Of a stretch of DNA of 64,000 nucleotides, positions 3,296 through 53,861 are shown piece after piece. The position numbers and the translations under genes are program-made. Within the stretch, counting starts at the first letter, position 1. Every line of letters begins with the position of its first letter. The notes under the pieces were generated by a model. That model ran no database searches. It was not told where the DNA came from and was given only the letters and a program-made list of their open reading frames with translations. This DNA comes from Sinanodonta woodiana (taxonomy: Eukaryota): the NCBI GenBank assembly GCA_046254885.1, contig CM100994.1:93638727-93702726 (forward strand), written 5' to 3'.

Positions 3296-3590
3296 GAAGA
3301 CATGCATGCATGCATGCATGCATACATACATACATACATACATACATACATACATACATACATACATACATACATACATACATACATACATACATACATA
3401 CATACATACATACATACATACATACATACATACATACAGTACATACATACATACATACAGTACATACATACATACATACATACATACATACATACATACA
3501 TACATACATACATACATACATACATACATACATACATACATACATACATACATACATACATACATACATGCATGCATGCATGCAAGAAGC
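3296..3590. repeat. (CATA)n/(CATG)n microsatellite, probable LINE 3' tail
   Basis: Pure tetranucleotide run directly downstream of the LINE ORF2 stop. The overlapping 100-154 aa ORFs are translation artefacts. Confidence 0.9.
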
Positions 3591-4212: not shown

Positions 4213-4720
<508 letters not shown>

Positions 4721-5747
4721 GAATGTGCTGTACTAGTTGTGCGGTTGGCAATCCAGATGTCATTTTCTATTCAAATAATGCTAAATATGAATTACGTTTT
4801 TTACACTGGTGTGGCACTTTAAAGTAAAACCTGCTTGAATGAGATTAAGTCTAACTCTAAGTTTGAAACTTGTATACTTTAAATTTATTAGCATTTCATA
4901 AATAGTTTTATGTATCGTTCTATTTCCACCTCATCTGTTCCTTGAACTTACATTTTAGTAGCGTTTTGCTATTACAACCACATATGTATCTTTATTCCAT
5001 TTATTAATTTAACAACTTTATAACTATCACTAATGTTAATCGCGATTCGCTACTCAAACGACCACATATGTTTTGTTGTTTTTTTTTTGTGGGCTTTTGT
5101 TGTTGTTGTTTGTATGTTATTTTGCTTTGGCGAGTTTTTTTTTTTTCTTTCTTCTTCTTCATTTTTTTCTCCCGATGCATATGTTTTAACACCACGCTTA
5201 CATAATGTTAATTGCATTTTGCAGCTCTGAGAATGGCCCCCCCCCCCTTTTTTTTTCTCTGTACATTTCCACATACCTTACCATTGAACTTAATGGTGAC
5301 CAAAGTGTTTGCTGTTCTGGCCTAGTTTCCCCACAACCACAACTACCCCCATCGTACTTTCACGAATCCTTGTAACACCACTCATGGATAGCAACATTCT
5401 TCTGATAAGCATCGACATCGATATTTGCTTTTTTTTTTCTGTCAGCTTCTAGACAGATTTGGACAATGCATAAACATTCTACTGATTGTCAGGCATTTTT
5501 AGTAATGTAATAAATCTGAAATATGCGCATTTGTTTATAGTTTTCCGCTGTACGGATTTCTTATATTGTTGTGATTACTAGTTTGATTATTGGTATCCAG
5601 TCCTGGGGAAATATTCATCAGACCGAAATAATTAGCCAATAAATAGGAACAAACGTCACGGTGTGAAGTTGTAGTGAGTTTCCACGGTGCCAAGGTTCTC
5701 GGTTGATGAATTCAGATCAGAATTACACGAGGATCCCTGTGTGTTCA

Positions 5748-5957
5748 AGCAGCAGTGGGGGTAAACCCACCATTACTTTTTTCATCATTACTATACACTC
5801 ATAAGCAAATACCATGATAGAACCCTTAGATTGCCAAACTAACAGAAAAAAAATGTCACGATGAATAGCTGCGTGTGTGGTGTATACCTGGGGTGGTACT
5901 CTTAGATATATATATACGTAACCGGTCATTAACATGCTTGTGCGCGTACGTGATCTT
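5748..5957. repeat. terminal inverted repeat (left) of element I-A
   Basis: Inverse complement of 37150-37359 at ~80-85% identity over ~210 bp; begins AGCAGCAG. Confidence 0.7.
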
Positions 5958-6788
5958 TCAGCCGAAGATTTTGTCTAATCCGATACGATATCGTGTTCGA
6001 GGGTCGTGTATGTTTATCGTTATAAATCCATGCGGGGTTGATTTAGCATGACTGAAAAAGTTCATGAATTTATTATACTCCATGTCGGAACACCACGTTT
6101 GCCAAATATTTCTTAGCGTGTGTATATCAACGCCGTTAAATACACATAACAGATTACAGTTATCTCTGATCACTTTTGGTATTTGAGTATACCGCTGAGT
6201 CAAATAAAATACATCAGTGTTTTTATGTCTGCCTCTGGAAAATATCCTAGCGGGATTTTTTTGTTTATCTAACATTACATCACCGTATACTACCATGTTA
6301 TTTATGTTTTCGTTGAGGTCTTCCACAGATGGTGATTCGTCCATATCGGTTATAAACTCAATAACGTCATCGCCGGCAATTTCTTTCGCGGACTCATTGT
6401 AATCTTTTAACACTTGATAACAATGTTGGTCATCTGCGCTTGGCGCAACTAAATATAATTTATCCCATGTGGTAAATTTCATTATCAGCGATAACAGCAA
6501 CTGTGTTTTACCAGACCCGGATGGCAATACAATGATACATCTGATAGAATTTGGTAGCATTTTATGGTGTTTTACTGCTTGTTTTTTCTTTAACGCGGAG
6601 AAATCGATTATTTTCATTAGATATACTCGTTTATAATATAAACAAATTATGAATTTATACTGTGTAAAATGTAAGACTCGTACACCGACAACCGACCAAA
6701 CAACAATTGTTACAAAAAATAGTCGGACAGCAATTACTGGTAGGTGTAAAATATGTGGTATAAAAAATTTAGATTTAAAAAAAAACAT
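5958..6788 (-). CDS. FtsK/HerA-type (A32-like) DNA packaging ATPase
   Basis: 276-aa ORF with Walker A LPSGSGKTQLLL, Walker B MVVYGDVMLD and the RGRHKNTDVFYLTQRYTQIPKVIRDNCNLL motif typical of Polinton, virophage and adenovirus packaging ATPases. Four paralogs in the window. Confidence 0.7.
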   Translation of the reverse strand: MFFFKSKFFIPHILHLPVIAVRLFFVTIVVWSVVGVRVLHFTQYKFIICLYYKRVYLMKIIDFSALKKKQAVKHHKMLPNSIRCIIVLPSGSGKTQLLLSLIMKFTTWDKLYLVAPSADDQHCYQVLKDYNESAKEIAGDDVIEFITDMDESPSVEDLNENINNMVVYGDVMLDKQKNPARIFSRGRHKNTDVFYLTQRYTQIPKVIRDNCNLLCVFNGVDIHTLRNIWQTWCSDMEYNKFMNFFSHAKSTPHGFITINIHDPRTRYRIGLDKIFG

Positions 6789-7160
6789 GGAGGTGACATC
6801 GCTGCCAACTTAACTAAACTCACAGGATTACCATGGGCAAAGTATCCCGGTGAGAAGCACCTTCCGGGTTATCGTTATTGTGGTACGGGGAATCGATTAG
6901 ATATCAGACTCGATAACAACGATCAACCACGACGCGGTGAGGAACCGATAAATACTATCGATGAAGCATGTCGGATACATGATATCGCTTATCGTAGTGG
7001 TGATTTACAACAACGTCATCTCGCCGACGTAAACTTAATTCATGCGATAATTGCTATTCCTGATAAATCCCTCAGGGAAAAAATGGCGTCAACGATTATC
7101 AAGGTTGCCATGAAATGTAAATTGTTATTTGGAAATGGAGTCTCTCGTGCAAGTATATAA
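6649..7160 (+). CDS. C4 zinc-finger / secreted-PLA2 domain protein (parvovirus VP1u-like phospholipase A2); +1 frame break in a poly-A run
   Basis: N-terminus MNLYCVKCKTRT...GRCKICG (CxxC...CxxC). The PLA2 frame has YRYCGTGNRLD (YxGxG Ca-loop) and CRIHDIAY (HDxxY catalytic). The two frames join if the A9 run at 6777-6785 is read as A10. Confidence 0.65.
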
Positions 7161-7173
7161 TGGATCATCGTAA

Positions 7174-8135
7174 AGTAATTTTAATAGAAAAATATATTAT
7201 TCTCCTCGTGGATATTTTATGGGAAAATCTGCTATTGATAAATTAGCTAGCGCTGCAAAGGTTTCACGTGATATTGCCGCGGATTGGTTAGCTCGACAAA
7301 CAATATGGCAAATTTATCTACCTGGCCCTGCATCGATCAACTATGGATCATTTGATGTTCATGTTCCCAATGAGGTTCATTAAGCTGATATATTATATTT
7401 ACCGCATGATAAAAAGGGATTGGTTTATAAATATGCGCTAACAATTGTTGACGTAGCAAGTAGATACAAGGATGCATTTCCGTTATCAACAAAGTCATCA
7501 TCTGAGGTCGCTTCTGCATTCAAAAAAATATATCAGAATTGTCCTCTGCGCTGGCCAAATCTATTGCAGGCTGATCCTGGTAGAGAGTTTTTCGGTGAGG
7601 TGTCATCGTTGATGGCGCAACATAATGTTATAATTCGACGAGGACATACTGCAATGCATCGCGATCAGGCAATTGTTGAGCGATTTAATAGAACTCTCGC
7701 TGATAAATTATTTTATTATCAAACCGCGAGGGAATTTATTCAGCAAGAACGATTACGTGAATGGGTAAAACGACTTCCCGATGCTATCGCATCGATTAAC
7801 AATCAGGTTACTTCAGCGATAAATGATAAGCCGGCCATCGCGATCACAACAAAATATATAACTGGGAAAACAAAAAAGGTTTTAGATGATTTACCGCTAC
7901 CACGAAATGCCACCGTGAGATATTTATATGAACCTGGTGAGCTTGAAGTGGAGTTAGAAGATCAACGGATCCAACATGGAGTATTACAACACATAAAATC
8001 CACGATATGATATCATCGGCGCATCGTCGTACCTATTAAAAATTGGATCCAACTGCGCCACAACGAAGTTTAACTCGGGAAGAGCTTCAAGTTATCCCTG
8101 AGGACACTCAGTTGCCACCAACGAATTTAGCGTAA
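7174..8135 (+). pseudogene. retroviral-type rve integrase (DD35E) with N-terminal HTH and C-terminal SH3-like domain; in-frame TAA and C-terminal frameshift
   Basis: LTIVDVASRY ... QADPGREF ... 35 aa ... ERFNRTL. In-frame TAA at 7381-7383 where the paralog at 39862 has CAA (NEVHQAD). The C-terminal YKLDPTAPQRSLTREELQVIPEDTQLPP is in another frame. Confidence 0.8.
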
Positions 8136-8199
8136 CAGCGACGCGCTTAAGTTGACTAATCCGTCGTACTCGTGAAACGGCTAAGTATATTAAATTGTC

Positions 8200-9617
8200 T
8201 CATTCGATGAAATAATCTATGATCCACATAATCGTATCCGTGATAGTTAATCCTTGTGATGAGTGTATCGTGGTTGCGTAACCTAGCCTCCACGGAGAAT
8301 TTTTTGCGTTTATTGCATCTCGGGTCACAGATAGATCAACTTCAACGATATCATTTAACACAAGTGTTTGCTGGATATCTTGACCTGGTATGTCAACTAA
8401 AATATTTTGCCGTCGAGTATCTTTAGATGGATAGCACAGCGGAACCTTCTCGTGGCGAAATTTCTTCTCTTGAAAATAAAATAACTTTTTCACGATGATA
8501 TCTCTTGTGTTCTTCCTACTTGCTACAACCATATCTGATGGTTTCCACGTGTTATAAAATTCTTCCAACGACGTTGCTGAAATTACTTCACGTAATTTTT
8601 CTCTTTGATTGTTACTACTAGTGCATCTAATATTAGCTTTCAACGTGGTTAATTCTTCATCGAGGGATCTTCGGTCGATTGTCATCTCCTCATAGTAGTC
8701 AACGAAATTCTTTAACCAGCAATGTGGAGATATACTTCCAAATGGTGGTGGCTGACCATGATCTCCGCATAGTATTACAACAGTATTCTTTGTACTCAAC
8801 CAATCTAAAAACATTTTTAATATTTTTTTGAAACTAATCAGGCTTTATCCCATAAAAGTGCATCAGGAATATTCTTAGTTCCCATTCGTTCGGGTGACCA
8901 ATCACCGCCACTATATCTGAAAAAACTATGATAGGTACTTGCGCTAACTTCTTTCTCAGTGAAATCTCTTGCAAGTCGATGAGTTGGAGTTAACGCGATT
9001 AAGTTAGTTCCGCGAAATAACTCAATTACTCGTGTTGTTTTTCCACAGCCACCTGGACCATTTAAATATACTAGTCGGTGTCGCGCAATCGGATCGTGTG
9101 CACTTGGAGCTGTTGAAATTTTCTCGATGACATTGCTATGAAATTCAGGTTTATCTTCAACATCCGCGTGCTCTCGATATGCATGTAACAACTCATCCTT
9201 GATTCGCCATGTTCCCCATGTTGTACCATCTCCGAGATATTCTTTGACGGGGTCATGATGTATTTTATCGTAATAAAATGAGTCAGTGGCAACTCTTACC
9301 GCGATGTCAGGAAATCTGTTTACGTTACTGAGTAAATTTATTGTCGCGTACGCTAGCATGTATGATCGCAAATGTGTCCACTGAGGCATTTCATCGCTGA
9401 AATATTCTACGACGGTTCCAAACGGTTCTCCGGATAGTTCTACATTGGATTGTCTAGCGAATACTCCCTTGGTCACTGCATCATCGATGACAAATTTTAA
9501 TTCTCCAGGATCTAAAATCAATTTGGCCGTTTTACGTTTACGAGTTTCATCACCATTTTCATCACTAATATTTGCTCCCTGTGTAAACTTTCCAATTATA
9601 ATCCTACCTAAAGCCTT
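8200..9617 (-). pseudogene. replicase C-terminal part: superfamily-1 helicase domain (truncated 5' by the I-B insertion, one frameshift)
   Basis: VYLNGPGGCGKTTRVIELF (Walker A), LTPTHRLA, ILCGDHGQPPPF (motif III GDxxQ), TIHSSQGLTITDTIMWII (motif V/VI). Frameshift near 8815-8837. The ORF-track start at 9644 reads into I-B TIR sequence. Confidence 0.75.
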
Positions 9618-9882
9618 AGCAGCAGAGCAGACAGGACCGACCATTTTTATCCTGTCAATGAGACGGCTCCATCATCAATAACTACATAGAAGGCTCAGAT
9701 TAACAATCTGACAGTAAAAAAAGTGTCACGTACATGGCTGGGGTATGTTAGGGTACCCCGTGGACCTTATCAATGATGACACTGTAGTTGATGAGACGGC
9801 ACCATCATCAATAACTACATGAAAAATTCGAAGAATTTTCAATGATATATTCTGCAATTTCAAGGGAAACTATTATATATAA
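9618..9882. repeat. TIR-L of I-B / upstream region of the structural module
   Basis: Contains a 2x direct repeat tgagacggc[t/a]ccatcatcaataactacat and the palindrome ggggtacccc. Inverse complement of 26338-26589. Confidence 0.75.
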
Positions 9883-10359
9883 ATGCCAGTCGGAGAAGCT
9901 CAAATAACTCGATTAAAAAGAGAGCGCTTAGAGGCTATCAAGAAATTTCTTCCTGTCAGGGATGCATTTCGTGAAAATTTAAAACGACAACAACAACGTA
10001 CTGAGTTTACAATTGGTAGTTCAGAATTATTTAAACCGATTACTGAGGTAACTAAACAGGTTGGTACTGAGGTCGCTAAGGTTGGTACTGAGGTCGCTAA
10101 GGTTGGTACTGAGGTCGCTAAGGTTAGTACAGAGGTTGCAAACGTTGGTACAGATACCACTAAGATTGCATTAAGAACTAAACAAATGAAAAAATCTTTA
10201 AAAACTCTTCCAGGTGATATAATTGCTACACAACCTAACCCTGTTGATGTACAGCAAGTTGATATTATTCTACCGGCGCCTGAATTTATTGATGAACCAC
10301 AACAAGAAATACAAAAAAGTAAACAACGAAGAGATCTTGACCCTAAAAAAAATATTTAA
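9883..10359 (+). CDS. structural-module protein A (unknown; 4x tandem VGTEVAK repeat)
   Basis: 158-aa ORF. The 21-bp unit gttggtactgaggtcgctaag repeats 4x at 10059-10142. Paralogs at 36699(-) and 47270(+). Confidence 0.5.
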   Translation: MPVGEAQITRLKRERLEAIKKFLPVRDAFRENLKRQQQRTEFTIGSSELFKPITEVTKQVGTEVAKVGTEVAKVGTEVAKVSTEVANVGTDTTKIALRTKQMKKSLKTLPGDIIATQPNPVDVQQVDIILPAPEFIDEPQQEIQKSKQRRDLDPKKNI

Positions 10360-10373
10360 TGTTGATTTGATAA

Positions 10374-10916
10374 ATGATATTAAAATTTTTAGGGTTGATG
10401 ATAAAGATTTTGCTCGATTCATCGTTGATACATCTGAAAAGGAAGGATCAGCGAGATAGCTATTTAAATGATGATTATAAGGGCGCAGTAAGTAGGCAAA
10501 ATTGGCCTAAAAAGGTATATTTAGTAAAAATTGGTAAGTCGCAATTAAAACCAAATGATCAGAATTTGATAAAACTTGAAAAATTGATAAAACAGATACA
10601 AAATCCGCCAATAGCGGTTGTACCTTTTGTATCTCAACCGATTCCAAAAACAGATGATGATGGTCAAGATTTACCTAAAAAGCAAACATCGGGTGATGGT
10701 TATCATGGTGGTAATATACCTTGTTCACGGAGTATCATCGACGATATATCACGTCTAGATATTCTTATTGGTGGAAAACGAACTGGAAATAATTCTCCGG
10801 AATTGATCCATGAGGCAACTGAAATTTGTCAACGATTATTTCGTGGACATGTTATGGATATTGGTATGTATCGAAGTTTTGTTAATGGACTCATTGATGA
10901 TTATTATAGTGATTAA
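10374..10916 (+). CDS. structural-module protein B (unknown; conserved C-terminal GGNIPxSRSIIDDISRL...DDYYSD domain)
   Basis: 180-aa ORF. Paralogs at 36168(-) and 47736-48376(+). The II-a copy has an RG-rich N-terminal stretch. Confidence 0.5.
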   Translation: MILKFLGLMIKILLDSSLIHLKRKDQRDSYLNDDYKGAVSRQNWPKKVYLVKIGKSQLKPNDQNLIKLEKLIKQIQNPPIAVVPFVSQPIPKTDDDGQDLPKKQTSGDGYHGGNIPCSRSIIDDISRLDILIGGKRTGNNSPELIHEATEICQRLFRGHVMDIGMYRSFVNGLIDDYYSD

Positions 10917-10955
10917 TCACCACGATTAATATTAGATAGATAGTATTTTAATATA

Positions 10956-11306
10956 ATGATTGTATATCGTAGTATGAATCGAGCTAAACCAGTTCATGTT
11001 ATAAATTCACGATTACCAGTTTATAAATTAATGTACGGAGATGAACTCGGTGATGTTGTTACAGGTTTATTTACAAGAATTGCTCCGAAAATACTTCCAA
11101 TCGGAAAAGAGTTGGCGTCAAAAGCTATTGGGGTAATCGGAGATACTGCCGCAAAAGATACTGGTACATATTTGTATAATTTCGCAAAAGAAAAACTTAC
11201 CTCGTTGATGAAACCAAAGAAACCCACTAAAGTTGTATTACCGTCGACGGATGAAATGTCAACATATATTGCCAATGAAATTAATTCACTTGCAAGAAAA
11301 AATTAA
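10956..11306 (+). CDS. structural-module protein C (small basic protein, unknown)
   Basis: 116-aa ORF with NSRLPVYKLxYGDxLGDVVTGLFTR conserved in paralogs at 35733-36099(-) and 48480-48927(+). Confidence 0.45.
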   Translation: MIVYRSMNRAKPVHVINSRLPVYKLMYGDELGDVVTGLFTRIAPKILPIGKELASKAIGVIGDTAAKDTGTYLYNFAKEKLTSLMKPKKPTKVVLPSTDEMSTYIANEINSLARKN

Positions 11307-11359
11307 AAACTGTCGGTTCAGGTTTGAAATTATCGATTTAAATCGTTGGCGTTAATATA

Positions 11360-24153: not shown

Positions 24154-25162
24154 TCAATTCATTGGTGGCAACTGAGTGTCCTCAGGAATAACTTGAAGTT
24201 GTTCTCGAGTAAAACTTCTTTGTGACGCAGTAGGGTCCAATTTGTAATACGTTGGCTTATGTGCCGACGATACCGTATCGTAGATTTGATGCGTTGTTGT
24301 ACTCCATATCGGATCTGTTGATCTTCTAACCCCGCCTTCAAGTTCACCGGGTTCATATAAATATCCTACTATGGCATTTCGTGGTAATGGTGCATCGTTG
24401 GAAACTCTTCGATTTTCACCTTTAGATTTTTTATTTATATATATTTTTGTGACCGCGATGGCCGGCTTATCATTTATCGACGATGTGATCTGATTGTTAA
24501 GTGACGCAATAACTTCAGGAAGTCGTTTACCCATTCACGAGATCTATCTTGTTGAATAAATTCTTTTGCTGTCTGATAATAAAATAATTTATCAGCGAGA
24601 GTTCTATTAAATCGTTCAACAATCGCCTGATCACGATGAATTGCAGTATGTCCTCGTCGAATTTTAACATTATGTTGAGCCATCAACGATGACACCTCAC
24701 CGAGAAACTCTCTACCAGGATCAACCTGCAATAGTTTTGGCCAACGTAGAGGACCTTTTTGATATATTTTTTGAACGCCTCAGCAACCTCCGATGATGAT
24801 TTTGTTGATAACGGAAATGCATCCTTGTATCTACTAGCAATATCAACAATTGTTAACGCATACTTGCAAACTTTTCGTTGTCGGAAATTATTCATAATTT
24901 TGTCATGCGGTAAATATAATATATCAGCTTGATGAACCTCATTGGGAACATGAACATCAAATGATCCATAGTTAATCGATGCGGCCTAAGGTAGGTAAAT
25001 CTGCCATATTGCTTGTCGAGTTAACCAATCCTCGGCAACCTTATGTATGAGTTTAGCCATATTAGCTAATTTACCAATAGCGGATATACCCATAAAATAT
25101 CCCTTAGGAGAATAATAAACTTTTTCCATGGAAACTCTTTGAGTTTTAACTTTACTCGCCAT
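24154..25162 (-). pseudogene. rve integrase of I-B (fragmented)
   Basis: N-terminus MASKVKTQRVSMEKVYYSPKGYF, core KYALTIVDIASRY..VDPGREF..ERFNRTL, C-terminus LPRNAIVGYLYEPGELE...YKLDPTASQRSFTREQLQVIPEDTQLPP, spread over 3 frames. Confidence 0.75.
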
Positions 25163-25294
25163 TATACACTTACACGGGAAATTCCATTTCCAAATAACAA
25201 TGTACCTTTCATAGCGGATTTAATAATCGCCGACGCCACGTTTTCCCTAAAAGATTTATCTGGGATGGCATTTATCGCATGAATCAAGTTGACA

Positions 25295-25641
25295 TCAGCA
25301 AGATGACGTTGTTGTACATGCTTCATCGATAGCATTTATAGGTTTTTTTCCGGGATTAGGTTGATCATTGTTGTCAAGAGTGATGTCTAATCGTGTTCCT
25401 GGTCCGCAATAACTATATCCTGGAAGGTGTTTCTCACCTGGATATTTTCCCCATGGAAGTCCTGGTAAACCACTTAATTTGGCGGCGATGTCACCACCTC
25501 GCATTTTTTTTTAAAATCTAAATTTTTTTGTGCCACACGTCGCACAGTTACCAGTAAGTGCATTCCTATTATTTTTGTAACAGTTGTTGTTTCGTTAATT
25601 GTTTGTGTACGCGCCTTACATTTCACACAATATAAATCCAT
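25295..25641 (-). pseudogene. zinc-finger/PLA2 protein of I-B (frameshift plus in-frame TAA)
   Basis: MDLYCVKCKARTQ..., then YSYCGPGTRLD, PINAIDEAC; disrupted. Confidence 0.55.
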
Positions 25642-25671
25642 AATATTATGTATAATACATAGTTATATCTA

Positions 25672-26337
25672 ATGGAAGTGATAAATTTCTCAGCGCTAAA
25701 AATGAAACCACAATGGAAACATCATCCAATGTTACCAAATTCAATTAGAAGTATTATTATAGGTCCATCCGGATGTGGTAAAACTCAACTATTACTAACA
25801 CTAATAATGAAATATACCAACTGGGATAAATTATATTTGATAGCTCCGTCCGTAGATGATCAACGTTGTTATCAAATACTAAAAGATTATAATGAATCAG
25901 CTAAAGAGAGTACCGGTGATGATGTCATCGATGTAATAACTGATATTGATGATGCGCCATCTGTAGATGATCTACATGCAGGAATAAATAACATGATAGT
26001 ATACGATGATGTCATGTTGGATAAACAAACAAAAAATCCAGCTCGGATATTTTCCCGAGGTAGGCATAAGAACGCTGACGTGATATATTTAACTCAGCGG
26101 TATACACAAATACCAAAAGTAATCAGAGACAATTGTAATTTTCTATGTGTATTTAACGGCATCGATATACACACGCTAAGAAATATTTGGCAAACTTGGT
26201 GCTCCGACATGGATTATAATAAATTAAAAACTTTTTTAGTGGAGCTCAATCAACTCCTCATGGGTTTGTTACAATAGCGATGCATGACCCAAACTCACGA
26301 TACCGAATCGGACTTGATAGAATATATCACTGAAAAT
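25672..26337 (+). CDS. packaging ATPase of I-B (C-terminal frameshift)
   Basis: IIGPSGCGKTQLLL, MIVYDDVMLD, RGRHKNADVIYLTQRYTQIPKVIRDNCNFL. The last ~20 aa (HGFVTIAMHDPNSRYRIGLDRIYH) are in another frame. Confidence 0.7.
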
Positions 26338-26589
26338 TTTCCGAATTTTTCACCGACCATCCATAGGATTTTCGTCCTTAAAATTGCAAAGCAATTTCCT
26401 CAATGGTGCCGTCTCATCAACTACAGTGTCATCATTGATAAGGTCTACGGGGTACCCTAACATACCCCAGACATGTACGTGACACTTTTTTTACTGTCAG
26501 ATTGTCAATCTGAGCCTTCTATGTAGTTATTGATGATGGAGCCGTCTCATTGACAGAATAAAAATGATTGGTCCACCCGCTCTGCTGCT
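26338..26589. repeat. TIR-R of I-B
   Basis: Inverse complement of 9618-9882; ends ...gctctgctgct. Confidence 0.75.
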
Positions 26590-28202
26590 GCCTTACACTC
26601 ATCGGTTATTACTTTGCGAAGAAATTCTATTTCATATATGGGAGGTGATGGTAACCAAACATTGGTTTGTTTATCACAGCTAAAAATTACTTCAGATATT
26701 ATCAAATCTATTAAAATATTAACATCTAGCATCCACCGTAATAACACGGTTGGACACCATCGTTTTTCATGTAAATGTCGTCCAATCCAAACATATACGA
26801 TTGGATGTAATCCTTCAGCGAATTTAAACGAAATAACCTCAGCGAATCCCGTTAAAGTATAATCGGGTAATGGTCCATTAACGGATCTTTGAACCATTCT
26901 ATGTGTTGGTAATCCAAATTCGTTATACCATTTATTACATTCACCGCCACCGAGAAAACTTTCTGGGTAGCATGGAATCATGTCAACGGACATCATATCG
27001 GGAAAATTATATTTGGTATTTCACAGTCCGCCTTGGCCGTATTTAACACAGCTCGCACGGACATCCGCGATAAACTTTTTCCTGGTTGGTTCCCAGGAAT
27101 TTTTCTCTCTGGTAAATTGGGCTGCTATCCATGATGCTGTGAAACTTGTTGTCGTGGATATATCTGCTAGCGAATTCTTCCCTGTCGCGTTGCAATGATT
27201 CCGTTCTATAGATGATTGCATCTGCGGTAACAAATTGGTCATATTTGTCACCATCACTTGAGAACAACCAAACATTTACCGGGTTAATATTATCTTTGAT
27301 CCACGTGAACATATCACCGGTATAGTATCTGATTCGTTTTTCACGTGGAAAATCACCTTCGTTAACTCCCCAAGCATGAAAATTGTGGTCGATAATCTCG
27401 ATTGGTGATCCACCCTTGCGATAACAACCAGAATCATAAAATATCCTATCTGGGAGCATTTTCACTATAATCGGGATTTTTAATCTTCGCTCTAACATTT
27501 CAACGTCTTTTCTCGTTGCACCATTTCATTTCTTATCAATGTAATCATTCCATGAATTAATTATATTAAGCCTTTTATCGTTCAGCTTCAAACCTCGCCG
27601 TGAGTTTCTGAAATGTTCAAATACTTGCTCGGTTACACAATTTAGCGTTGTTGATAATCTCATTCTGTCAACTTTTCGTTCATTTGGAGTTTCAACTGGA
27701 TATAATCCATACACGATAATGTTATACGGGTATGCTACGTTGTAATGACTATCAATACCAACTAACACACCAGGTTTAGTTTTTTTCGTTAACACGAATA
27801 ATTTTTTATTATATGTTACTCGTTGACGATGACGGGCTACCTTCCATGACGGGGTTGGTTCACCAAATAGCAAATCAAGGATATCTTGTTTTTTTTACGT
27901 TTTCATCGAGATGGTCTCCGTAAAAAAATACTATAAAATACATCTAACGTATATGGGCAATCAAGATTAATCATCGATGCTATTTCTCGGGCGCGTTTTT
28001 CTGTCATAGTTTCATCGTCGTAGTTTGTTCTGTATGTTGCAAATACGTACGCGGCACCATTCTGCAGATGTTGATATTTAGCTTCACGAATACTATTTAT
28101 AATTCGAGATTTATACTTTGTCGGGGATATTTTCCCATCAAGGTCAACGCGGGTACGATTCCTCGGTTGATTCACCTCGGTAATTTTAGATAATTTTGTC
28201 AT
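26590..28202 (-). pseudogene. replicase N-terminal part of I-A (unknown-function domains; 3 frame breaks), separated from its helicase part by I-B
   Basis: ORF pieces 27903..28202, 27526..27873, 27043..27498 and 26590..26996 are collinear with II-a replicase pieces 44284..42813. Conserved IIDHNxHAW and MxSVDMxxCYPxSFLGxGEC...NGPLPD..LTGFA..SF.FAxxLH..xYVWIG.H motifs. Confidence 0.6.
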
Positions 28203-28262
28203 ATATTATAGTACAGATTTTTTTATTCAATTAAAAATTCTGATTTTTATATAATAATTAAA

Positions 28263-28584: not shown

Positions 28585-29029
28585 TATTTATTTCTCACCC
28601 TGTGTATGATGATTACGAAGCTTCCAACGATGGAATCATACGACATAAACGATTTAAGAAAAATCTTGGTAATATTAATATATATGGTTATAAACAGGTT
28701 ACTATTTATAAATGTGGAAAATGAAAGTTTATCGTTCTAATAGATTTATCATTGAATGTTCTCACGGGTTGATCCCGAAAGGTTTAGTTGTTGATCACAT
28801 TAACCGAGGTAAACTTGATAACAGATTAGAGAATCTTCGTGTGGTAACTTCACGAGAAAATAATCTAAATTCTGCACCGAGAATTAAATCACAACAACGT
28901 AGACCTGTTATCGGTGTAGTGAATATCTCAGAAAAACTTTTTCCTTCGACGTATTCTACTGGAAAATATTATAATATTCATAGACAATCTATCAAACTAG
29001 TTTCCGATGATATTTATCTAAGTACGTAA
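28585..29029 (+). pseudogene. HNH endonuclease (frameshifted)
   Basis: GIIRHKRFKKNLGNINIYGYKQVTIY then a frame change to RSNRFIIECSHGLIPKGLVVDHINRGKLDNRLENLRVVTSRENN. Confidence 0.55.
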
Positions 29030-34331: not shown

Positions 34332-35729
34332 TTATATATTTTCCACCAGTGCATCAAGGACTCGCATTCGTCCTCCACCACCCTCAATTATCATAGATTT
34401 ATCACTGAGTAGAACCGCAATAGCTATAATTCCACCTACCGGAGATTCTCCAACACGAGCTTGAAATTTAACGTCAACGACAGAATGCTTAGATAAATCA
34501 AGATGTTGCAATGAAAAGTAATAGATAGGATAAAGAGTTTTAAAATCCAATTCAGATATTTGTAAACCGGTATCGATATTTTGATCTCACCCCATGAATG
34601 ACCATAGTCGATGATAAGCTCGTCCAATTTGATTATTATCGTAATCGAGAATAAGATTTTCGGCTGGTTCCTGCTGATTACTAATCCGAAGTGAAACCTC
34701 ACTAACTTTATATGAATCAAATATCATATGAGATTGTTCGTGAAGTTCAGCGTGTTGAGTCCTATTATTAGCTTGCAATGAAACAAAGACATGTCTTGGC
34801 GCTGAAACGTTTTTCGTTAGCGCGAGTTGCCAAGTCATTGTACCACCCCCAGAAAATTTTGTAGTGGTCGTTGTAGTATCCATTCATGACAATAATGATC
34901 TTCCTCCTTGATCCATAAAAGATAGCAATCTGGTTTCAGTATATATCGATGGTGTCAATACTGGCATCCACAGTGCTAGCTTTGATAATATTACAAATCC
35001 ATTAGCGACGCTATCAGCTTTCCATAGCGCCAAGTCATCAGATTGTCTTCGTTGTAATACAACCGCATGACTAGCTCCATATATAACTTTTCGGACATCT
35101 CTACAGAAACCAAATATATGAGATAATGGAATAACACATGAAAATCTACCATTGGGGTCCAACATTTTCTTTCGTGTTGCAAAACCTGAATTAAAATTAG
35201 CATTTCTCGAAACCATCACATCCGGAGTTTCATCAGGATAACCTTTAATAGCATGAACGGTAAACTCAGATTGATTTGCAGTATCTTTTGTATCCTTTGA
35301 AAACATCATCGAATGACCAGCAGATTTAATAAAATCATCAGAGTACCTAGCTAACCCGACAATTGTTGTAGCAACATCAACATCGTTATCAATTGCTTTA
35401 ATTTTAGTAGTTCCGATTATATATTGCGTTGAGGCAAATAACGTCATGATACCATTATTGACAAATCGTATATTGGTAGTATCCAAGTTAGCATAATTAG
35501 CACCCGCCTGATTAGATGCTAGCTTACCCTCGACTTCAATAAAGGCCTCAGACGGCAAGAAGTATTTAGATGTGTCATCAAATCTAAGTTCAATACGTGT
35601 TCTCGCATCTGGGTTACTTGCATTATATGAAAAATATTGATAATCTTTCACTGAGTTATTCTTACGTGTTTTAGCATCAATGGCAAAGGCATCATCAATC
35701 TCGTATTCAATCATTATATTGATGACCAT
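34332..35729 (-). pseudogene. candidate major capsid protein (3 ORF pieces)
   Basis: 34884..35729, 34587..34883 and 34332..34550 are collinear with 11360-12734. Confidence 0.4.
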
Positions 35730-37149: not shown

Positions 37150-37359
37150 CTTCATTGAAATCTTCGGCTGAAAGATCACGTACGCACACAAGCATGTTTA
37201 TGTTGCTAACGCAACAACTATGACGAATTACCCGGTTACATTTTCTTGCTATGTTCGACGATATTATTTTGGCATTATGAGGCGTTATCATGTATTTTGC
37301 TTATCGGTATATAACAATGATGAGAAGAAAAAAAGTTCTGGGTTTACCCCCGTTGCTGC
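37150..37359. repeat. terminal inverted repeat (right) of I-A
   Basis: Inverse complement of 5748-5957; terminus ...ccccgttgctgct followed by the TSD gttca. Confidence 0.7.
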
Positions 37360-38487
37360 TGTTCAGTATGTAGTCGCTATTAAAATCTAGTTGTCACAGT
37401 AAACTAACTGTGTGACTCCAGGTGCAGTAGTTATGATTGGAAACTGATATATTATATAACGGAATCAACGGGGAAGGACTATTTCACCGTTGGCCTGTGT
37501 TATTCCAATGGTGGGAACTATGGTGCAAGTACAGACAAAAAAATGTGTCATAATCTCATAAGCTTGCGTAGTATGAGTAGTTCTATGCATAAGGTGACTT
37601 AGTTATATAGTTTCACAACTTAAAACACAGGCGGTACGTTTATGAAGAGAATTCATGCAGTTGCGTGGTTGATACATAATTGGGAAATTTGGAAATTTGT
37701 CGTGTTCTATATTAATTAGAATAAAACTATTTATAGACTGGACATTCCAGTTTACAACAGGAATCAGCAGAAACAATTATGGCTACAACTGAGATTCGCG
37801 CCAGAGTTTGACATCGCTCTGTCAAGAAACCTCTTTGATTGTATTTTCAACTAATATTTTGAATTGGCGTCATAATGCAGAGCCATTTAAGACTGTTTCT
37901 TCCTGATTCACACATAGAAGACTGCAGTACACTTTACAGGTTTCATTGTGTTACGTGCTTAGGCTTGAATAAGCAACAACACAGAAAGAGTGAAAAATAA
38001 CAAACATGTAAAACTTTAATAAACTATTTATTGAGTATACATATTTTCATAAAAGAAAATAAATAACTTACGATTTTAGGGAATAAGTCAAAATTTCATG
38101 AATCCAAAAGAATTCACAATATAATCCACTAAGAATTAACAAGTATAATCCACTTGTGGAATCGTTAAAGTCCTGCTAGTAAAATGTTATATTAGTTTCT
38201 CGGTTTGAATCTTGACGATGTAATAATAATAAAAAATGGCATACGATGTCACGTGATGCAGTTCTGATTTTAATCTTACGAAAGTTTAATGAGCACACGA
38301 TTTAAGTATCACAAATAAATTCCTTTTGAATCAAAACGAGTTGAAATATTTTACCAGTACAAGGTAATAATATATAAAATTCATCTTTTCCCAAACGAAT
38401 TTAAATAAATTTACGATATATCTCAAAACACAACTATTTTTTTAAAGCCCACTCTGCTCTTAGCTTGCAACACTCCACTATATAAAT

Positions 38488-38653
38488 ATATAAAGCCTGA
38501 TTTTAAGATGTCAATTTGTCAATCCAGAGTGGTCAAATCCTACAAAGCTTTTCCAGGCATCGAATCGTTAATTTAAGCCTTCCTCCAAATAGCAAAAAAA
38601 TAAAATGATGCCCCTGCGTCCGAGATAGGCTGCTCAGGGTAATCCTATGGATT
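38488..38653. repeat. left TIR of II-a (outer ~70 bp missing)
   Basis: ataaagcctgattttaagatgtcaatttgtcaatccagag...ccgagataggctgctcagggtaatcctatgg is mirrored at 53930-54130. Confidence 0.6.
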
Positions 38654-39313
38654 TTAAGTGGATATTTGATCAAGTCTGATACGATATCGTGTCCTAGGGT
38701 CATACAAATTAATTGTAACAAATCCGTGTGCGGTCGACTGAGCATGACTGAAAAAGTTTTTAAATTTATTGAAGTCCATGTCGGAACACCATGTCTGCCA
38801 AATATTTCGTAGCGTATGTGTATCAACGCCATTGAATACAGCAAGAATATTACAGTTATCCCTGATTACTTTTGGTATTTGAGTGTACCGCTGAGTGACA
38901 TATATCACATCAGTGTTTTTATGCCTGCCTCTGGAAAATATCCTAGCAGGGCTTTTTTGATTGTCTAACATTACATCATCGTATACGACTAAATTATTTA
39001 CGCTTCCATCGAGGTCCTCAACGGATGGCGCATCATTGATATCAGTTATAAACTCAATGACGTTTTCTCCTGCAATCTCTGAAGCGTTTTCGTTAAATTC
39101 TTTTAACACTTCATAGCACCGTTGATCATCTACGGACGGGGCAACTAAATACAACTTGTTCCACCTGATCCATCTCATTTTTAAATTAAGTAGCAATTGC
39201 GTCTTGCCGGATCCAGATGGTCCAATGATAATCATCCGAACAGAGTTTGGTAACGCTGCGACGTGTTTTATTGGTTCTCTTGTTTTAGTCGCTGAAAAAT
39301 CAATTACATTCAC
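38654..39313 (-). CDS. FtsK/HerA-type packaging ATPase (intact, 219 aa)
   Basis: IIGPSGSGKTQLLL, LVVYDDVMLD, RGRHKNTDVIYVTQRYTQIPKVIRDNCNIL. Confidence 0.75.
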   Translation of the reverse strand: MNVIDFSATKTREPIKHVAALPNSVRMIIIGPSGSGKTQLLLNLKMRWIRWNKLYLVAPSVDDQRCYEVLKEFNENASEIAGENVIEFITDINDAPSVEDLDGSVNNLVVYDDVMLDNQKSPARIFSRGRHKNTDVIYVTQRYTQIPKVIRDNCNILAVFNGVDTHTLRNIWQTWCSDMDFNKFKNFFSHAQSTAHGFVTINLYDPRTRYRIRLDQIST

Positions 39314-39330
39314 AACGCTATATATAAATT

Positions 39331-39859
39331 ATGGATTTATATTGTGTGAAGTGTAAAACGCGTACTAGCAGAAATGATGTGACGACAATTACAACTAAAA
39401 ATAATCGAACAGCACTTAATGGTAAGTGTGCGACATGTGGTATAAAAAAATTAGATTTGTTTCCTCTGACAGCATCAAGGGTGTTTAAAAAAAACAACTC
39501 GGAGTTGATATTGCAGCCAAATTAGCAAAACTCACAGGAACCCCATGGGAAAAGTATCCCGGAGAAAAGCACCTTCCAGGATATAGCTACTGTGGCCCGG
39601 GAACACGATTAGATATCAGACTAGATGAACAAAATCAACCCCGACCTGGCGAGAATCCGATAAATGCTATTGATAATACGTGTCATGCTCATGATGTTGC
39701 TTATAAAAGTAGCAATTTGCAGCAAAGGCATATCGCTGATGTAAAATTAATTCATGCGCTAAATGCTATTCCTGATAAATCCTTCAAAGAAAAATTGGCT
39801 TCATGGTTGGTAAAAACAGCTATGAAAGGTAAGTTGGTGATGGGCGCTAATTATAAATA
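39331..39859 (+). CDS. C4 zinc-finger / PLA2 protein; +1 frame break in A8 at 39487-39494
   Basis: MDLYCVKCKTRT...GKCATCG, then in the next frame YSYCGPGTRLD (YxGxG) and CHAHDVAY (HDxxY). Contiguous if the A-run is read one base longer, the same site and direction as in the I-A copy. Confidence 0.65.
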
Positions 39860-39861
39860 AT

Positions 39862-40796
39862 ATGGAATATATTTATTATTCTCCGAGAGGATACTGGAGG
39901 GGTAAAGCTGCAATTAGTAAACTCGCAAGTGCCGCAAGGGTAAAAAAGACAACTGCGGATAATTGGTTATCCAAACAAGCTATTTGGCAAATTTTTCTAC
40001 CACGCCCTAAACAAATCAACTTTTCGCATTTTGATGTTACTGTACCTAATGAAGTTCATCAAGCTGATTTATTATTTTTGCCACATGATAACGGTTACAA
40101 ATACGCGCTAACAGTAGTTGATGTAGCGAGTCGATACAAACAGACAGAGCCATTGAAAACAAAGTCGGCATCTGAAGATGCTTCTGCATTTGAAAGGATT
40201 TATCGTAGAGGTCCTCTGCGCTGGCCAAATCTACTACAGGTTGATCCTGGTAAGGAATTTCAAGGTGTTGTTGCATCTTCAATGAAACATCATAATGCCG
40301 CCATCAGACGAGGACATACTGCACTACATCGTGATCAGGCAATTATTGAACGATTCAATCGGACTCTTGCTGAGCGGTTATTTGGATATCAATACGCAAA
40401 AGAATTCATTCAGGATAAAAGATCTCGTGAATGGGTTAAAAGGTTACCAGGAGTAGTTGCAGCTCTAAATAATGAGATTACCAGAACAATCAATATGAAA
40501 CCCAGCGACGCAATAAAAAAAGTATATACCCGGACAACCACGAGATGGTTATTCCCAGCCAATTCTTGGTAATGTCACTGTGAGATATTTATACGAGCCA
40601 GGAGAGCTTGAAGGTGGTACAGCGAGGGCTACTGATCCTATTTGGAGTGTTACATAGGATATCTACTATAACACGATCAACTGGTACACCTCCAATCTAT
40701 AAGTTGGATTCAACTGCACCTCAGCGGGGTTTTACACGAGAACAACTACAAGTGATTCCTGACGATACTCAATTGTCTCCATGCGGCCTTAACTAG
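39862..40796 (+). CDS. rve integrase (DD35E; 236-aa ORF intact through the core; C-terminal SH3-like region frameshifted)
   Basis: LTVVDVASRY..VDPGKEF..35 aa..ERFNRTL. C-terminal VRYLYEPGELEGG and YKLDSTAPQRGFTREQLQVIPDDTQL are in other frames. Confidence 0.8.
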
Positions 40797-41193
40797 CGCC
40801 TTTTCGTCTATTACACTCAAGATATGTCAACATCACATTATCGCGTATATGCCCGAGATTGTTATTTTTTCTGTCTACGGTAAATTGACGAGGGTCTTTA
40901 TCCGAATACTGCCAGCGCATTATACAATTGCAACTCGCACAGTGATTATTATGTTGCTGTTTCAAAACAATTATAAATTCAGCATCAATATCAAATTCCC
41001 GTTTATTTTTTTATCCTGTTGTTTGTATCCAGAGAGTTTTTTATTCATAATTTTAATATCGAAAATGCTGGTATTTTTAATATCACTGATTGTGGTTTCT
41101 GCGTCATCATCGAAAACAATTCTTCGAAGTTAATTTAATCGCCGCACTCTGGATACTGCAAGATATACTAAATTCGACCACTCAATGCGATTA

Positions 41194-44100
41194 TCAACTA
41201 TCCAAACAATTGTATCCGTGATGATTAATCCCTGCGAAGAGTATTGTTGCTGCGTAACCTAGCGTCCATGGTGATTTATCAGCACGCAACGCATCTTCGA
41301 CAGCACTAATATCAACCAGTACAATATCATTTAATACTAAAATCTGTTTTTCTGTCAACCGGCCTGGAACTTCAACTTCAATATTTTGTCGCCGTGTGTC
41401 CGAAGGCCTGTAACACAACGGTACTGGCACCGTTGGAAATTTTTCTTTATGCAACTCGAATAACTTTCTCTGAAGTGTATCTCTGACTATTTTTCTACTT
41501 GCGATTATCAAATCATTTGGTCTCCACGTTTCCCAAAAGTCATTCATGGTAGTTTCTGGAATTATTTCACGCGCTACTTCACATTGAATTCTATCGGGTT
41601 GTAATCTGATTAGTTTCTTGAATTCTCGTAATGGTTCATCAAGTGCTCTATGGTCAGTATCGATTTCTTCATAATAGTCAACAAACCCTTTCAGGTAATC
41701 ATGTGGACTCTTGCCAACAAATGGTGGTGGTTGACCATGATCGCCACACATTATCACTTTTGTATTCGAACGCAACAACCAATCAATAAACATTTGTAGC
41801 ACATCTAGCGAAACAGTGCATATTACATCCCATATAATGATTTCAGGAATAAATTTCTCGCCCATTCTTTCAGGGGTCCACTCATCACCTTTATATCTAA
41901 AAAAGCTGTGATAAGTACATGCATCTACGTTTCGTTGTTTTCTCTCTCTCGCTAGTCTGTGAGTCGGTGTAAGCACAATCATATTTGCACGATCTCGATA
42001 TAATTCTATCGCACGTGTTGTTTTCCCTGACCCGCCACATCCGTTTAAATAAACTGTTTTATACCTACAAATCGGGTCAGATACCACTGGTGCATTAGAC
42101 CACTTTGATAAATTATCACCGCGTAAGTAATTATCGGCCATCGGGACATCTGCTGATTTGAAATAATCACGTCGTATTTCATTTTTAATTCTCCATGTGC
42201 CCCAACTCTCATTTGGATTAGTAAATTCAGCCACTTCGTTTATGTAATTGCGGTCAATATACATTGAATCAATTGCAACTCTAACCGCAGTATTAGGAAA
42301 TCTATTTATCATTGAAAATAAATTGATAGAAGCATAACCCAGCATAGATGCCCTCAAATGTGCATACGGAGAACTTTCACCGTCGTTGTAAGTAACAATT
42401 GTACCTAACTTTACCCCATTGGACAAGAAAGCTGTTTTACAATTCGCATATCTATTTTTTGCTACTGCATCTTTGATTACAAAATCGTATTCGGCGTCAT
42501 CTATAATCAGCCGTGAAGAATATCTTTTATAATCGTAGTTTTCCCCCCTTGAGTAAATTTGCCAATTATTCTCCTGCCGAGATCTTTTGCTTCGATGTTT
42601 CGTTGGTTGAATATCTTTTTGGATCACTCAATGATATATTCTTCGTTGCAATCTCGAAGATGTTTTCTTGATTCGTCAATTATACTATCAAGACGCTCTG
42701 GTTATGGCAGCCAGACATCAGTCTGCGCTCGATATGATATAATTGCCTCGCTGACAATCAACGAAATTTGCATTTTACAATCAATCATATATCGCAATAA
42801 CACTATTGGCAGTCATATTTTTTCAGACATATGTCTACCAATCCAAACATAACAACACGGATGCAGTCCAGTTGCGAATTCAAATGATACTACTTTAGCA
42901 AATCCGGTTAAATCAAAATCAGGTAATGGTCCATTAATAGCAACACGAGTCATTTCATGTACTGGGTGACCAAATCGTTTGTAATACTCAGCACACTCCC
43001 CATACCCGAGGAAACTCCCTGGATAACAAGCAACCATATCAACGGAAATCATACTATCTCGGTCGTATTTATTATTCCATAAACCACCGTGATTAAGTTT
43101 CAAAAAGCTTGATTGTACATCTGGTAAAAAATCTCTGCGTGTTGGTTTTCACGCATTTTTCTTTCTTGCAGCATGGGCTGCAATCGATGGAATTGTAAAA
43201 CAATTTGTCAGTAATTGTTCGTCTGATTTTCCATCATTGAATTCCATGGCGAGTTTTTTCATCCGTGTATGGAGATCTTCAGTGCGGTATAATTCACCGT
43301 TAGGTCTTACAAATTGATTGAATCCACACTCTTCATCTTCAGCACTGCGAAGTAACCACACTGACACAGGGTCATTTTTACACGCACACGCAATAGCATC
43401 GAATAGTCTTTCTTCCGTGAGAAGTCCATCCCTGGTGAATTCTTTAGGGATAGACTTCAATGTTCTATCCCGTGGGAATATTGTAATCGTGGGTGTCCAA
43501 GCGTGTTTGTTATGATCAATAATTTTGATTGGAGCTCCGTTTTTATTGTATTTCAATTCGTATAACACCTCAGCGGTAATCGTTATAACGGTTATTGGAA
43601 ATCTTAGCAGTGTTTCTAATTTAGATATATCAGTAATAGTTACTACATTCTCTTTCACAGTTAAATCCCATTCATTAATTTTCTTACGCCGCAGCTCAGT
43701 CAATTTATTTCCACAGAGTGCATTTGTAAAATATTCCATTACTCGTGCTGCTACACAATTCAATGAAGCCCCTGACGAGAGTTTCATTTGTGCTAGTTTT
43801 CCAATATCAGGCTTCTTACTCAACGGGTATATCCCATAAACAACTGCTGTTTCAGGATAAGCTCGTTCATAGCATGGTCTGTCAATTCCAGTTTACAAAC
43901 CCGGATTGGAATCACGGCTAACAGTTAATGTTTTCTTGTCGCTAAGAATTGGAACTAATTTGTCTCTTATAATCCAATCACCTCATTCCAATTCCGCATG
44001 GATAATAAATTTCACTCTAAAAAATACTTTTTACTGTCAAGTTGTGATTACATCGCAGCAGCAGTTTCATCATTCATGGTGGCATCAACAACGCCATCAA

Positions 44101-44284
44101 ATTTAAATCTCGACCAGCTATGAGATGCACCGTCGTGCTTTAATTCCTCTGCACAGTCACAAATTTTATTTATTAAACTTCTATCCGTTATTGCCTTTTT
44201 GAGGGTATTTTTGAGGGGTCTATCGAGATTAAATTTAATATTTTTCGAAGGCTTAATCGCCGATAATCTCTCGAACTCCTTCAT
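41194..44284 (-). CDS. replicase, ~1,030 aa: N-terminal unknown domains plus intact 477-aa SF1 helicase (upstream part in 4 frame-shifted pieces)
   Basis: 41194..42627: VYLNGCGGSGKTTRAIELY, LTPTHRLA, IMCGDHGQPPPF, motif-VI region degraded (TILFAGINHHG). Upstream pieces 42813..43103 (MISVDMVACYPGSFLGYGEC), 43149..43823 (IKIIDHNKHAW) and 44048..44284. Confidence 0.7.
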
Positions 44285-44329
44285 GTTATAATTAAAACAA
44301 GTATTTAAATAAAAAAAATTATTATATGA

Positions 44330-44663
44330 TGAATAATTGCAAATGGCTTATGATAGGTTCGACAACTCCATGTAACAAGTCTTGTAGAAATGAATACTGT
44401 GGATATCATTTACAGAGTGTTCGAAAGGGTCGAAAGGTCCCTTAAAATGCCTTGCTTGCGGAATTGGCGTGAGAGGATATTCACAACTTTGCGTGGTGTG
44501 TGGAGGCAAGCGGTATAGAGAATTAAAACGTTACTATGACAAGCGAATAGAAAATGCAGTGATTGACCCTACCCTTGACTCTGTCAAAGACAAAATCATC
44601 AAAACCCCACATGACTACATTAATAGATTTATAATTAAGACAAATAATAAATTAGACAAATAG
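44330..44663 (+). pseudogene. small Cys-rich zinc-ribbon protein (frameshift)
   Basis: STTPCNKSCRNEYCGYHLQS then LKCLACGIGVRGYSQLCVVCGGKRYRELKRYY. Confidence 0.45.
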
Positions 44664-44689
44664 TATTTTTTTTACAAATGAGCTAAGAA

Positions 44690-47225: not shown

Positions 47226-47269
47226 CGGAATCTATTCACAATTGAAAACATTAATGGGAAATTAGAATA

Positions 47270-47734: not shown

Positions 47735-47735
47735 A

Positions 47736-48376: not shown

Positions 48377-48479
48377 ATTTTCACAATTGGAAAACCAGTA
48401 CTTAGAAACTGTTAGCAATTGAAAACACTAGTATTTTTATAATAAGATGATCAAACACTATAATCATGATAAACCAACT

Positions 48480-48927: not shown

Positions 48928-49018
48928 AAATTCATTGAATTTGAAAATCCTCTGGATTTTTATACTAATGCTGGCATTAGTATTTAGAAATTTTTATAGC
49001 AATTGAAAATACTAGTAT

Positions 49019-53859: not shown

Positions 53860-53861
53860 AA

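Follow-up and report, generated by a model that had tools for sequence, protein, structure and literature searches.

Evidence for a three-deep stack of Maverick/Polinton-type and Mutator-like transposon insertions in Sinanodonta woodiana

Nested transposons in a 64-kb window

We analyzed a 64,000-nucleotide stretch of the Sinanodonta woodiana genome (GenBank assembly GCA_046254885.1, contig CM100994.1, positions 93,638,727 to 93,702,726 of the forward strand; hereafter the window, with coordinates counted from its first letter), in which a Mutator-like element (MULE) lies within a virus-like transposon, element I-B, which in turn lies within a related transposon, element I-A. This arrangement is very probably a three-deep stack of transposon insertions. 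The nested-insertion reading is supported by perfect target-site duplications (TSDs) at the ends of the terminal inverted repeats (TIRs), by restoration of the reading frame after each excision, and by collinearity with paralogs.

Element I-B interrupts the replicase gene of element I-A

The direct repeat GCCTT, read from the sequence at 9613-9617 and 26590-26594, adjoins both termini of I-B; the initial annotation had placed it at the ends of the I-B inverted repeats, and a base-by-base check bears this out. The left terminus reads AGCAGCAGAGCAG... (in its shorter form AGCAGCAGAGC...) and the right one ...GCTCTGCTGCT, with the end motifs AGCAGCAG...CTGCTGCT, and the TIR is ~187 bp long and ~95% identical (94.7% over 188 bp). 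I-B spans 16,972 bp, which falls to 14,982 bp once the MULE and one copy of its TSD are subtracted, and is oriented opposite to I-A.

The initial annotation also held that excision of I-B rejoins the replicase as ...DECK/ALGRIIIGKF... (the slash marks the junction). When 9618-26594 is deleted and the minus strand translated, a single open frame does run over the join in I-A (...IEFLRKVITDECKALGRIIIGKFTQGANISDENG... / ...PIYEIEFLRKVITDECKALGRIIIGKFTQGANISDENG...), and it matches the uninterrupted replicase copy that I-B itself carries at ~20621 (...ISECKALGRIIIGKFTQG... / ...EFLRGGIISECKALGRIIIGKFTQG...). Cutting out the inner element with one TSD copy restores a colinear, in-frame outer sequence, which distinguishes nested insertion from rearrangement. 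Two independent criteria, the TIR ends and the points where I-A/I-B homology breaks off in a self-BLAST of the window, define the insertion boundaries, and for this base composition the chance of a match at two fixed positions is ~1.4e-3 for a 5-mer and ~7e-6 for a 9-mer. The insertion point lies between polymerase motifs A and C of I-A, at about residue 545-554 of P0002, a full-length replicase homolog of which amino acids 121-541 and 554-1041 align by tblastn on opposite sides of I-B.

Compared with I-A 27001-28183, I-B has a clean 1.18-kb deletion at 20211/20212 that takes the first ~416 replicase residues; because of this N-terminal deletion and quite apart from the MULE, I-B either already was replication-defective or became so. 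With its 5'-truncated replicase, I-B may be a defective copy that was mobilized in trans. The parts of I-B are listed below (here and in later lists, lines that give no strand are for unstranded features). An (AT)57 microsatellite also occurs within the element, at 14840-14953.

9613-9617: TSD copy 1 of I-B (GCCTT)
9618-26589, minus strand: element I-B, inverted relative to I-A
9618-9805: I-B TIR left arm (94.7% over 188 bp)
11360-12436, plus strand: I-B double-jelly-roll (DJR) major capsid protein (Pfam PF21738, 6e-15)
13030-13578, plus strand: I-B adenain/Ulp1-like cysteine protease, a weak match (Pfam C48, E 0.0033, below cut-off)
20212-20986, plus strand: I-B replicase part 1 (P0002 aa 417-658), N-terminal ~416 aa absent
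22977-24149, plus strand: I-B replicase part 2 (from the TDS of motif C on, with a superfamily 1B (SF1B) helicase)
24157-24985, minus strand: I-B integrase remnant, homologous to the I-A integrase region
25672-26277, plus strand: I-B A32-like ATPase (Walker A GPSGCGK), 78% nucleotide identity to the I-A ATPase region
26403-26589: I-B TIR right arm
26590-26594: TSD copy 2 of I-B (GCCTT)

A Mutator-like element interrupts the replicase of I-B

Members of the Mutator superfamily make TSDs of 8-11 bp, typically 9, and have long TIRs. The MULE in I-B (20987-22967; 1,981 bp) has the direct repeat AGAGTTGCC (9 bp; 20978-20986 and 22968-22976) on its two sides and lies directly before the TDS of polymerase motif C in the I-B replicase. 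As in the case of I-B, excision restores the frame of the interrupted gene, here ...NRFPDIAVRVA/TDSFYYDK... (NRFPDIAVRVATDSFYYDK), which agrees residue for residue with I-A, and P0002 amino acids 417-658 and 656-1041 align by tblastn on opposite sides of the insertion. Both the 9-bp TSD and the name given to this element in the initial annotation are thus upheld, the latter by the TSD together with a PF10551 transposase domain (E 1.2e-13, 51.7 bits versus a cut-off of 27.6). The TIRs match at 45 of their first 50 bp and degrade beyond. Like other Mutator-like elements, this one combines a transposase domain and a 9-bp TSD with GC-rich TIRs and subterminal repeats; unlike typical MULEs, this copy is only 1,981 bp long, has a frameshifted and truncated transposase, and is single-copy in the window.

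20978-20986: MULE TSD copy 1 (AGAGTTGCC)
20987-22967, minus strand: MULE, TIRs beginning GG..CCCGACAAAAGAGCGCGCGACAAAAGAGCGCCGACAAAA, with 14-bp subterminal repeats
21742-22470, minus strand: MULE transposase remnant (Pfam PF10551, 1.2e-13), the remainder frameshifted
22968-22976: MULE TSD copy 2 (AGAGTTGCC)

The outer element I-A

I-A begins at 5748, directly 3' of GTTCA (5743-5747), and its right terminus, ...GTTGCTGCT (...CCCCCGTTGCTGCT), ends at 37360 and is followed by GTTCA at 37361-37365. The left copy of this duplication is where the initial annotation had put it, while the position given there for the right copy, 37360-37364, reads TGTTC and is too low by one base. Without I-B, the element measures 14,636 bp; its TIR of ~225 bp is ~65% identical overall, and 19 of the terminal 21 nucleotides match. 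The two replicase halves (8134-9617 and 26595-28205) come together to ~3.0-3.1 kb, in line with the length first proposed, but the neighboring replicase gene II-a with which they were compared is not intact: free of large insertions, it has an alignment to P0002 (44278-41151) that is broken into four frame segments, which implies at least three frameshifts, and its C-terminus is out of frame. In some relatives, an HNH motif is fused to the replicase C-terminus (for example in P0017 and in the C-terminal consensus of alignment A1).

5743-5747: left TSD copy of I-A (GTTCA), adjoining the terminus AGCAGCAGTGGGGG
5748-5975: I-A left TIR (~225 bp, ~65% identical to the right TIR)
5958-6788, minus strand: I-A A32-like packaging ATPase, degraded (Pfam Pox_A32, 3e-11)
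6750-7157, plus strand: I-A open reading frame with a phospholipase A2 (PLA2)-like domain of the parvovirus VP1 type (Pfam PF08398, 2.6e-11)
7384-8010, plus strand: I-A rve integrase fragment (Pfam rve, 1.6e-5, below gathering score)
8134-9617, minus strand: I-A replicase 3' part (P0002 aa 554-1041: motif-C region and SF1B helicase)
26595-28205, minus strand: I-A replicase 5' part (N-terminal domain and motif-A region SVDMIPCYPES)
28712-29026, plus strand: I-A HNH endonuclease open reading frame (Pfam HNH_3, 2.6e-14)
34884-35729, minus strand: I-A major capsid protein fragment, homologous to the I-B capsid protein
37155-37360: I-A right TIR, ending ...CCCCCGTTGCTGCT at 37360
37361-37365: right TSD copy of I-A (GTTCA)

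Collinearity, decay and relative order

Self-comparison of the window confirms that the arms of I-A are collinear across I-B and those of I-B across the MULE. In the self-BLAST, I-A 5968-9296 aligns with I-B 26323-22968, I-A 9288-9547 with I-B 20986-20727 (that is, across the MULE), and I-A 26617-27000 with I-B 20604-20212 (across I-B itself), and the alignment runs on to I-A 37161 versus I-B 9857. Because nucleotide identity over these alignments is 65-78%, I-A and I-B represent two subfamilies and not recent sister copies. Every gene of both elements contains stops or frameshifts.

Since the TSD of I-B consists of I-A sequence, the I-A replicase sequence predates the entry of I-B; likewise, the nesting of the MULE implies that the I-B replicase predates the entry of the MULE. 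The TIR identities (~65% in I-A, ~95% in I-B) are consistent with I-A being the older resident. The order I-A, I-B, MULE that was first proposed is not given in full by nesting alone, which is compatible with entry of the MULE into I-B either before or after the arrival of I-B at this locus.

Target-site duplication and termini in related elements

To the two elements of the window we compared six related loci (L001-L006), of which only L002 holds a complete element with both ends. This contig from a European Nucleotide Archive (ENA) assembly (48% GC) carries an intact 12.6-kb element at 8378-21018, whose replicase shares 41% identity with the window protein, with TIRs of 307 bp at 99% identity, the termini AGCAGCAGGGGGGG...CCCCCCCTGCTGCT, and the 5-bp TSD GTAGT. 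An intact distant relative therefore corroborates the 5-bp TSD claimed in the initial annotation. Left ends in L001, L003, L005 and L006 begin with the same AGCAGCAG. Because they are common to L002, with the ends also in these four loci, the end motif and the 5-bp duplication are traits of the lineage.

A 6-bp TSD, in which the terminal T is given to the target, was considered and rejected: it works for I-A and L002 and fails for I-B, and the non-T bases found 5' of the 5-mer in L005 and L006 are also contrary to it. A duplication of 5 bp with symmetric termini is the sole reading that fits all three complete elements. T occurs at position -6 in five of eight left flanks, a preference that is not significant, and no target-site consensus is apparent among GCCTT, GTTCA, GTAGT, TGTCA, TCTTC, GGTTC, CCTGG, TATCG and CCCTC.

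Two of these loci show further structure. In L003, two identical left ends, in which GGGTTCCTGG is followed by AGCAGCAGGAGGGATGATCAT, occur at positions 1507 and 7177, 5.7 kb apart in direct orientation and with the same 10-bp flank; they may reflect duplication, tandem or segmental, or else a partial element array. L004 (ENA ERZ25069786 ctg48657) is a 30-kb contig with a related element and a name suffix _c, as if circular; its right terminus ...CCCCCCCTGCTGCT, at 6195, is accompanied by an inverted repeat partner of 200 bp (7564-7762), there is no recognizable AGCAGCAG end, and the pair of ends is ambiguous.

Assignment to the Maverick/Polinton type

I-A and I-B are degraded Maverick/Polinton-type virus-like transposons. 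Their virion module comprises the DJR capsid (PF21738, 6e-15), the A32 ATPase (Pox_A32, 3e-11) and a weak C48 protease match (0.0033, below cut-off); no match to a penton protein was obtained in Pfam or PHROGs searches. The rve integrase is found in the degraded I-A copy at E 1.6e-5 (25.6 bits versus a gathering score of 32.6), and in the intact relatives L001 and L002 the adjacent gene carries PF00665. TIR lengths are 187 bp in I-B, ~225 bp in I-A and 307 bp in L002, all beginning AGCAGCAG, and the TSD of 5 bp in these three elements falls inside the 5-6 bp range of the literature, in which mavirus and Maverick/Polintons are cited with TSDs of 5-6 bp (PMC8547959).

Among 5.8 billion proteins searched, 56 homologs were obtained. 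Of the named ones, the best belong to two unionids, Sinanodonta woodiana (identities of 74% and 53%) and Potamilus, and to sea slugs of the genus Elysia; by themselves, these best matches indicate a molluscan host, most probably a freshwater mussel. A first guess of Trichomonas Mavericks or Tetrahymena Tlr elements was dropped because the protein matches point to molluscs.

Full-length replicase homologs are ~1,050 amino acids long, with a helicase in the last ~400 residues. Pfam finds only SF1 helicase domains (AAA_19, AAA_30) in the replicase, a sequence-profile search against the PDB gives RecD/Pif1 helicases only, and PHROGs contributes only "Dda-like helicase"; the first ~650 residues of the full-length homologs have no Pfam match, and the classical protein-primed DNA polymerase of family B (pPolB), sought with Pfam in the replicase and its homologs, was not found. 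The phi29-like polymerase emerged from fold comparison alone: the structure of P0002 (52% identity to the window protein), modeled from a 32-sequence alignment (mean predicted local distance difference test score, pLDDT, 76.7), matches Pif1/RecD2 (E 3e-13) and phi29 DNA polymerase (E 4e-8) in a Foldseek search of the PDB. In addition, the alignment has invariant Asp residues in SVDMxxCYPxS, which resembles motif A, and in RVATDS, which resembles motif C. The replicase is thus predicted to be a phi29-like family-B polymerase fused to an SF1B (Pif1/RecD-type) helicase, and the label used in the initial annotation is a fair one because of this fusion of a polymerase fold and a helicase. The AGC-reiterated termini and the phi29-like fold are consistent with protein-primed "jumping-back" replication.

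A 2026 preprint recognizes two groups of animal Maverick-Polintons (bioRxiv 10.64898/2026.06.19.733378). Members of group 2 often carry, in place of pPolB, a polymerase or primase to which an SF1 or SF3 helicase is fused, and they commonly encode a phospholipase (bioRxiv 10.64898/2026.06.19.733378). The elements described here resemble group 2 Maverick-Polintons/Polintoviricetes in size (~15 kb), TIRs of 190-310 bp, animal host and a TSD in the 5-6 bp range, as well as in their rve integrase, A32 ATPase, DJR capsid, adenain-like protease, PLA2 and polymerase-SF1 helicase replicase, and on gene content alone (helicase-fused replicase, phospholipase) they agree with group 2 membership. As in Maverick/Polintons, their ends start with AG and are built of a reiterated trinucleotide. 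Unlike Maverick/Polintons, they have no stand-alone pPolB by Pfam; their polymerase is joined to a Pif1/RecD-like helicase and can be recognized only from its fold and its motifs. In vertebrate Mavericks, the TSD is 6 bp long and the end motifs are (AGT)2 or (AG)3 (PMC8097293), whereas the TSD here is 5 bp and the ends read (AGC)2AG. Tlr1 elements and polinton-like viruses (PLVs) similarly have an rve integrase, an A32 ATPase, a DJR capsid and a helicase-containing replication protein in place of the classical pPolB, but they come from protist hosts or aquatic viromes, and the likeness is one of gene content alone. The elements are new members of the animal Maverick/Polintons with a predicted polymerase-helicase replicase.

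Neighboring family-II copies and other features of the window

A family-II element occupies 38489-54203. Its left part (38489 to ~46870) consists of ATPase, integrase and replicase in the I-A orientation, its capsid module (46874-53856) is oriented opposite to that of family I, and its outer TIR pair (38489-38644 versus 54140-53974) is 87% identical. The right end, ...CTCTCTGCTGCT, falls at 54203 and is followed by TGTCA; the left end is without the terminal ~64 bp, hence there is no AGCAGCAG terminus there. The region may represent a single element whose structural module is inverted, or else an R-only fragment adjoining an S-only element. Another copy, II-c (57991-64000), starts at 57991 with TCTTC followed by AGCAGCAGAGGGGG and runs past the window edge; a TIR of ~500 bp leads to a capsid module at 58519 that is ~80% identical to 53856-49061 inverted, and the ATPase-integrase-replicase block is absent at that end, which suggests that II-c is a deletion derivative sharing its junction with the 46874-54203 copy.

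The palindrome AAATCC-N3-GGATTT occurs nine times (both strands) against 0.16 expected, with sites at 13240, 38640, 46890, 48945, 50985, 53861 and 62587, mostly at family-II gene or module boundaries; it may be a shared promoter/terminator element or a recombination site. Within the 3.8-kb spacer between the family-II copies lie two short inverted-repeat structures (54607-55065 and 56011-56679), one a (TG)n-based hairpin and the other an inverted repeat of 245 bp (90% identity) that may be a miniature inverted-repeat transposable element. Long microsatellites, (TTAC)127 at 100% identity and (ACAT)70, are located at 4214-4720 and 3300-3581.

Mechanism and alternative explanations

As we envisage it, I-A (14.6 kb, termini AGCAGCAG...CTGCTGCT) would have integrated into host DNA via its rve integrase, duplicating GTTCA, the staggered 5-bp cut presumably being made by this enzyme. 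I-B (~15 kb, 70-78% identical to I-A in nucleotide sequence) would later have integrated in the opposite orientation into the I-A replicase, duplicating GCCTT, and a Mutator-like element would have integrated into the I-B replicase just before motif C, duplicating 9 bp; all three elements are now pseudogenized. Some points weigh against this account: the "empty sites" used for comparison are paralogs; the integrase match of the degraded copy does not reach the Pfam gathering score; the polymerase is assigned from the model of a homolog with 52% identity (mean pLDDT 76.7) and has no Pfam PolB match; and for I-A and L002 the TSD could be read as 6 bp, a T and the 5-mer, if the 3'-terminal T is counted with the target.

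The same structure could have arisen in another order, with the MULE already present in a replicase-defective I-B when that copy was mobilized in trans, or with I-A arriving with I-B inside it. As the I-B replicase also lacks ~416 N-terminal residues, the copy that moved may have been defective, and at least two related copies in the window (II-b and II-c), without the ATPase-integrase-replicase module, suggest that defective copies can propagate in trans; nor does the window date the MULE against the integration of I-B. Such an order would, however, need replication, integration and possibly packaging in trans of a composite that measures 17 kb and has a broken replicase, or of one that joins I-A and I-B and measures 31.6 kb. 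No second copy of a composite is found within the window by self-BLAST, and the I-A TIRs are far more diverged than those of I-B (65% versus 95%), which fits sequential arrival at the locus, so that we consider this course of events unlikely.

Ectopic recombination or rearrangement of two or three separate truncated elements would not make perfect 5-bp and 9-bp repeats exactly at the TIR ends, nor leave flanks that rejoin in frame with zero bases lost or gained, and is extremely improbable even in a window where related elements are densely clustered in either orientation and family-II neighbors look rearranged or deleted. We give no more credence to an assembly artifact produced by collapsed or chimerically joined repeats: repeat-rich regions are prone to mis-assembly, but I-A and I-B, at 65-78% identity, are too divergent for assembler confusion, and at the junctions the TSDs and TIRs are the canonical marks of genuine integration.

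Implications

Nests of maize long terminal repeat (LTR) retrotransposons have been used as relative clocks. Ngaro retrotransposons inside endogenous mavirus-like elements are another case of nesting (PMC8547959). As in these nests, the inner element here breaks the outer one and its TSD derives from the outer sequence, giving a relative order; unlike them, a Maverick-type element lies within a Maverick-type element, which chance alone should produce in a genome of which at least a tenth consists of such elements. Unionids are reported to carry the highest load of Polinton- and PLV-derived sequence of any eukaryote examined, 12-16%, with 16% in Unio delphinus and 13% in Sinohyriopsis and with copies that are mostly not near-identical (bioRxiv 10.1101/2025.04.19.649669), and Polinton activity has been reported in the unionid Megalonaias (PMC9976758). 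The elements of the window, of which ~80% is derived from such sequence, resemble these unionid "viral regions" in that their best protein matches are unionid and their copies are dense, mostly degraded and non-identical. Where these surveys treat such regions, they count them, and TIR/TSD anatomy and base-resolution nesting do not appear to be described there.

Because random integration predicts that about one insertion in ten falls within such elements, nesting is an expected outcome. The initial annotation's statement that the family can insert into its own relatives is true, but no special targeting is needed in a genome so rich in them. It is very unlikely that the (AGC)2AG-ended, 5-bp-TSD, polymerase-helicase elements form a distinct, formally undescribed, mollusc-centered Maverick-like lineage whose integrase prefers resident relatives; if true, preferred landing in or next to relatives would explain both the 4-5 copies in 64 kb and the fact that one element entered the replicase of a relative.

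Nested insertions such as these are routine. TSDs of 5-6 bp, polymerase-SF1 helicase replicases and element-saturated unionid genomes are already known as well, and the locus does not change current understanding. What it provides is base-exact ends, a TSD length and an end motif for the branch of Maverick/Polintons with a helicase-fused polymerase in bivalves, together with a small relative chronology, of use for transposable element libraries, mussel genome annotation and training cases for boundary detection.

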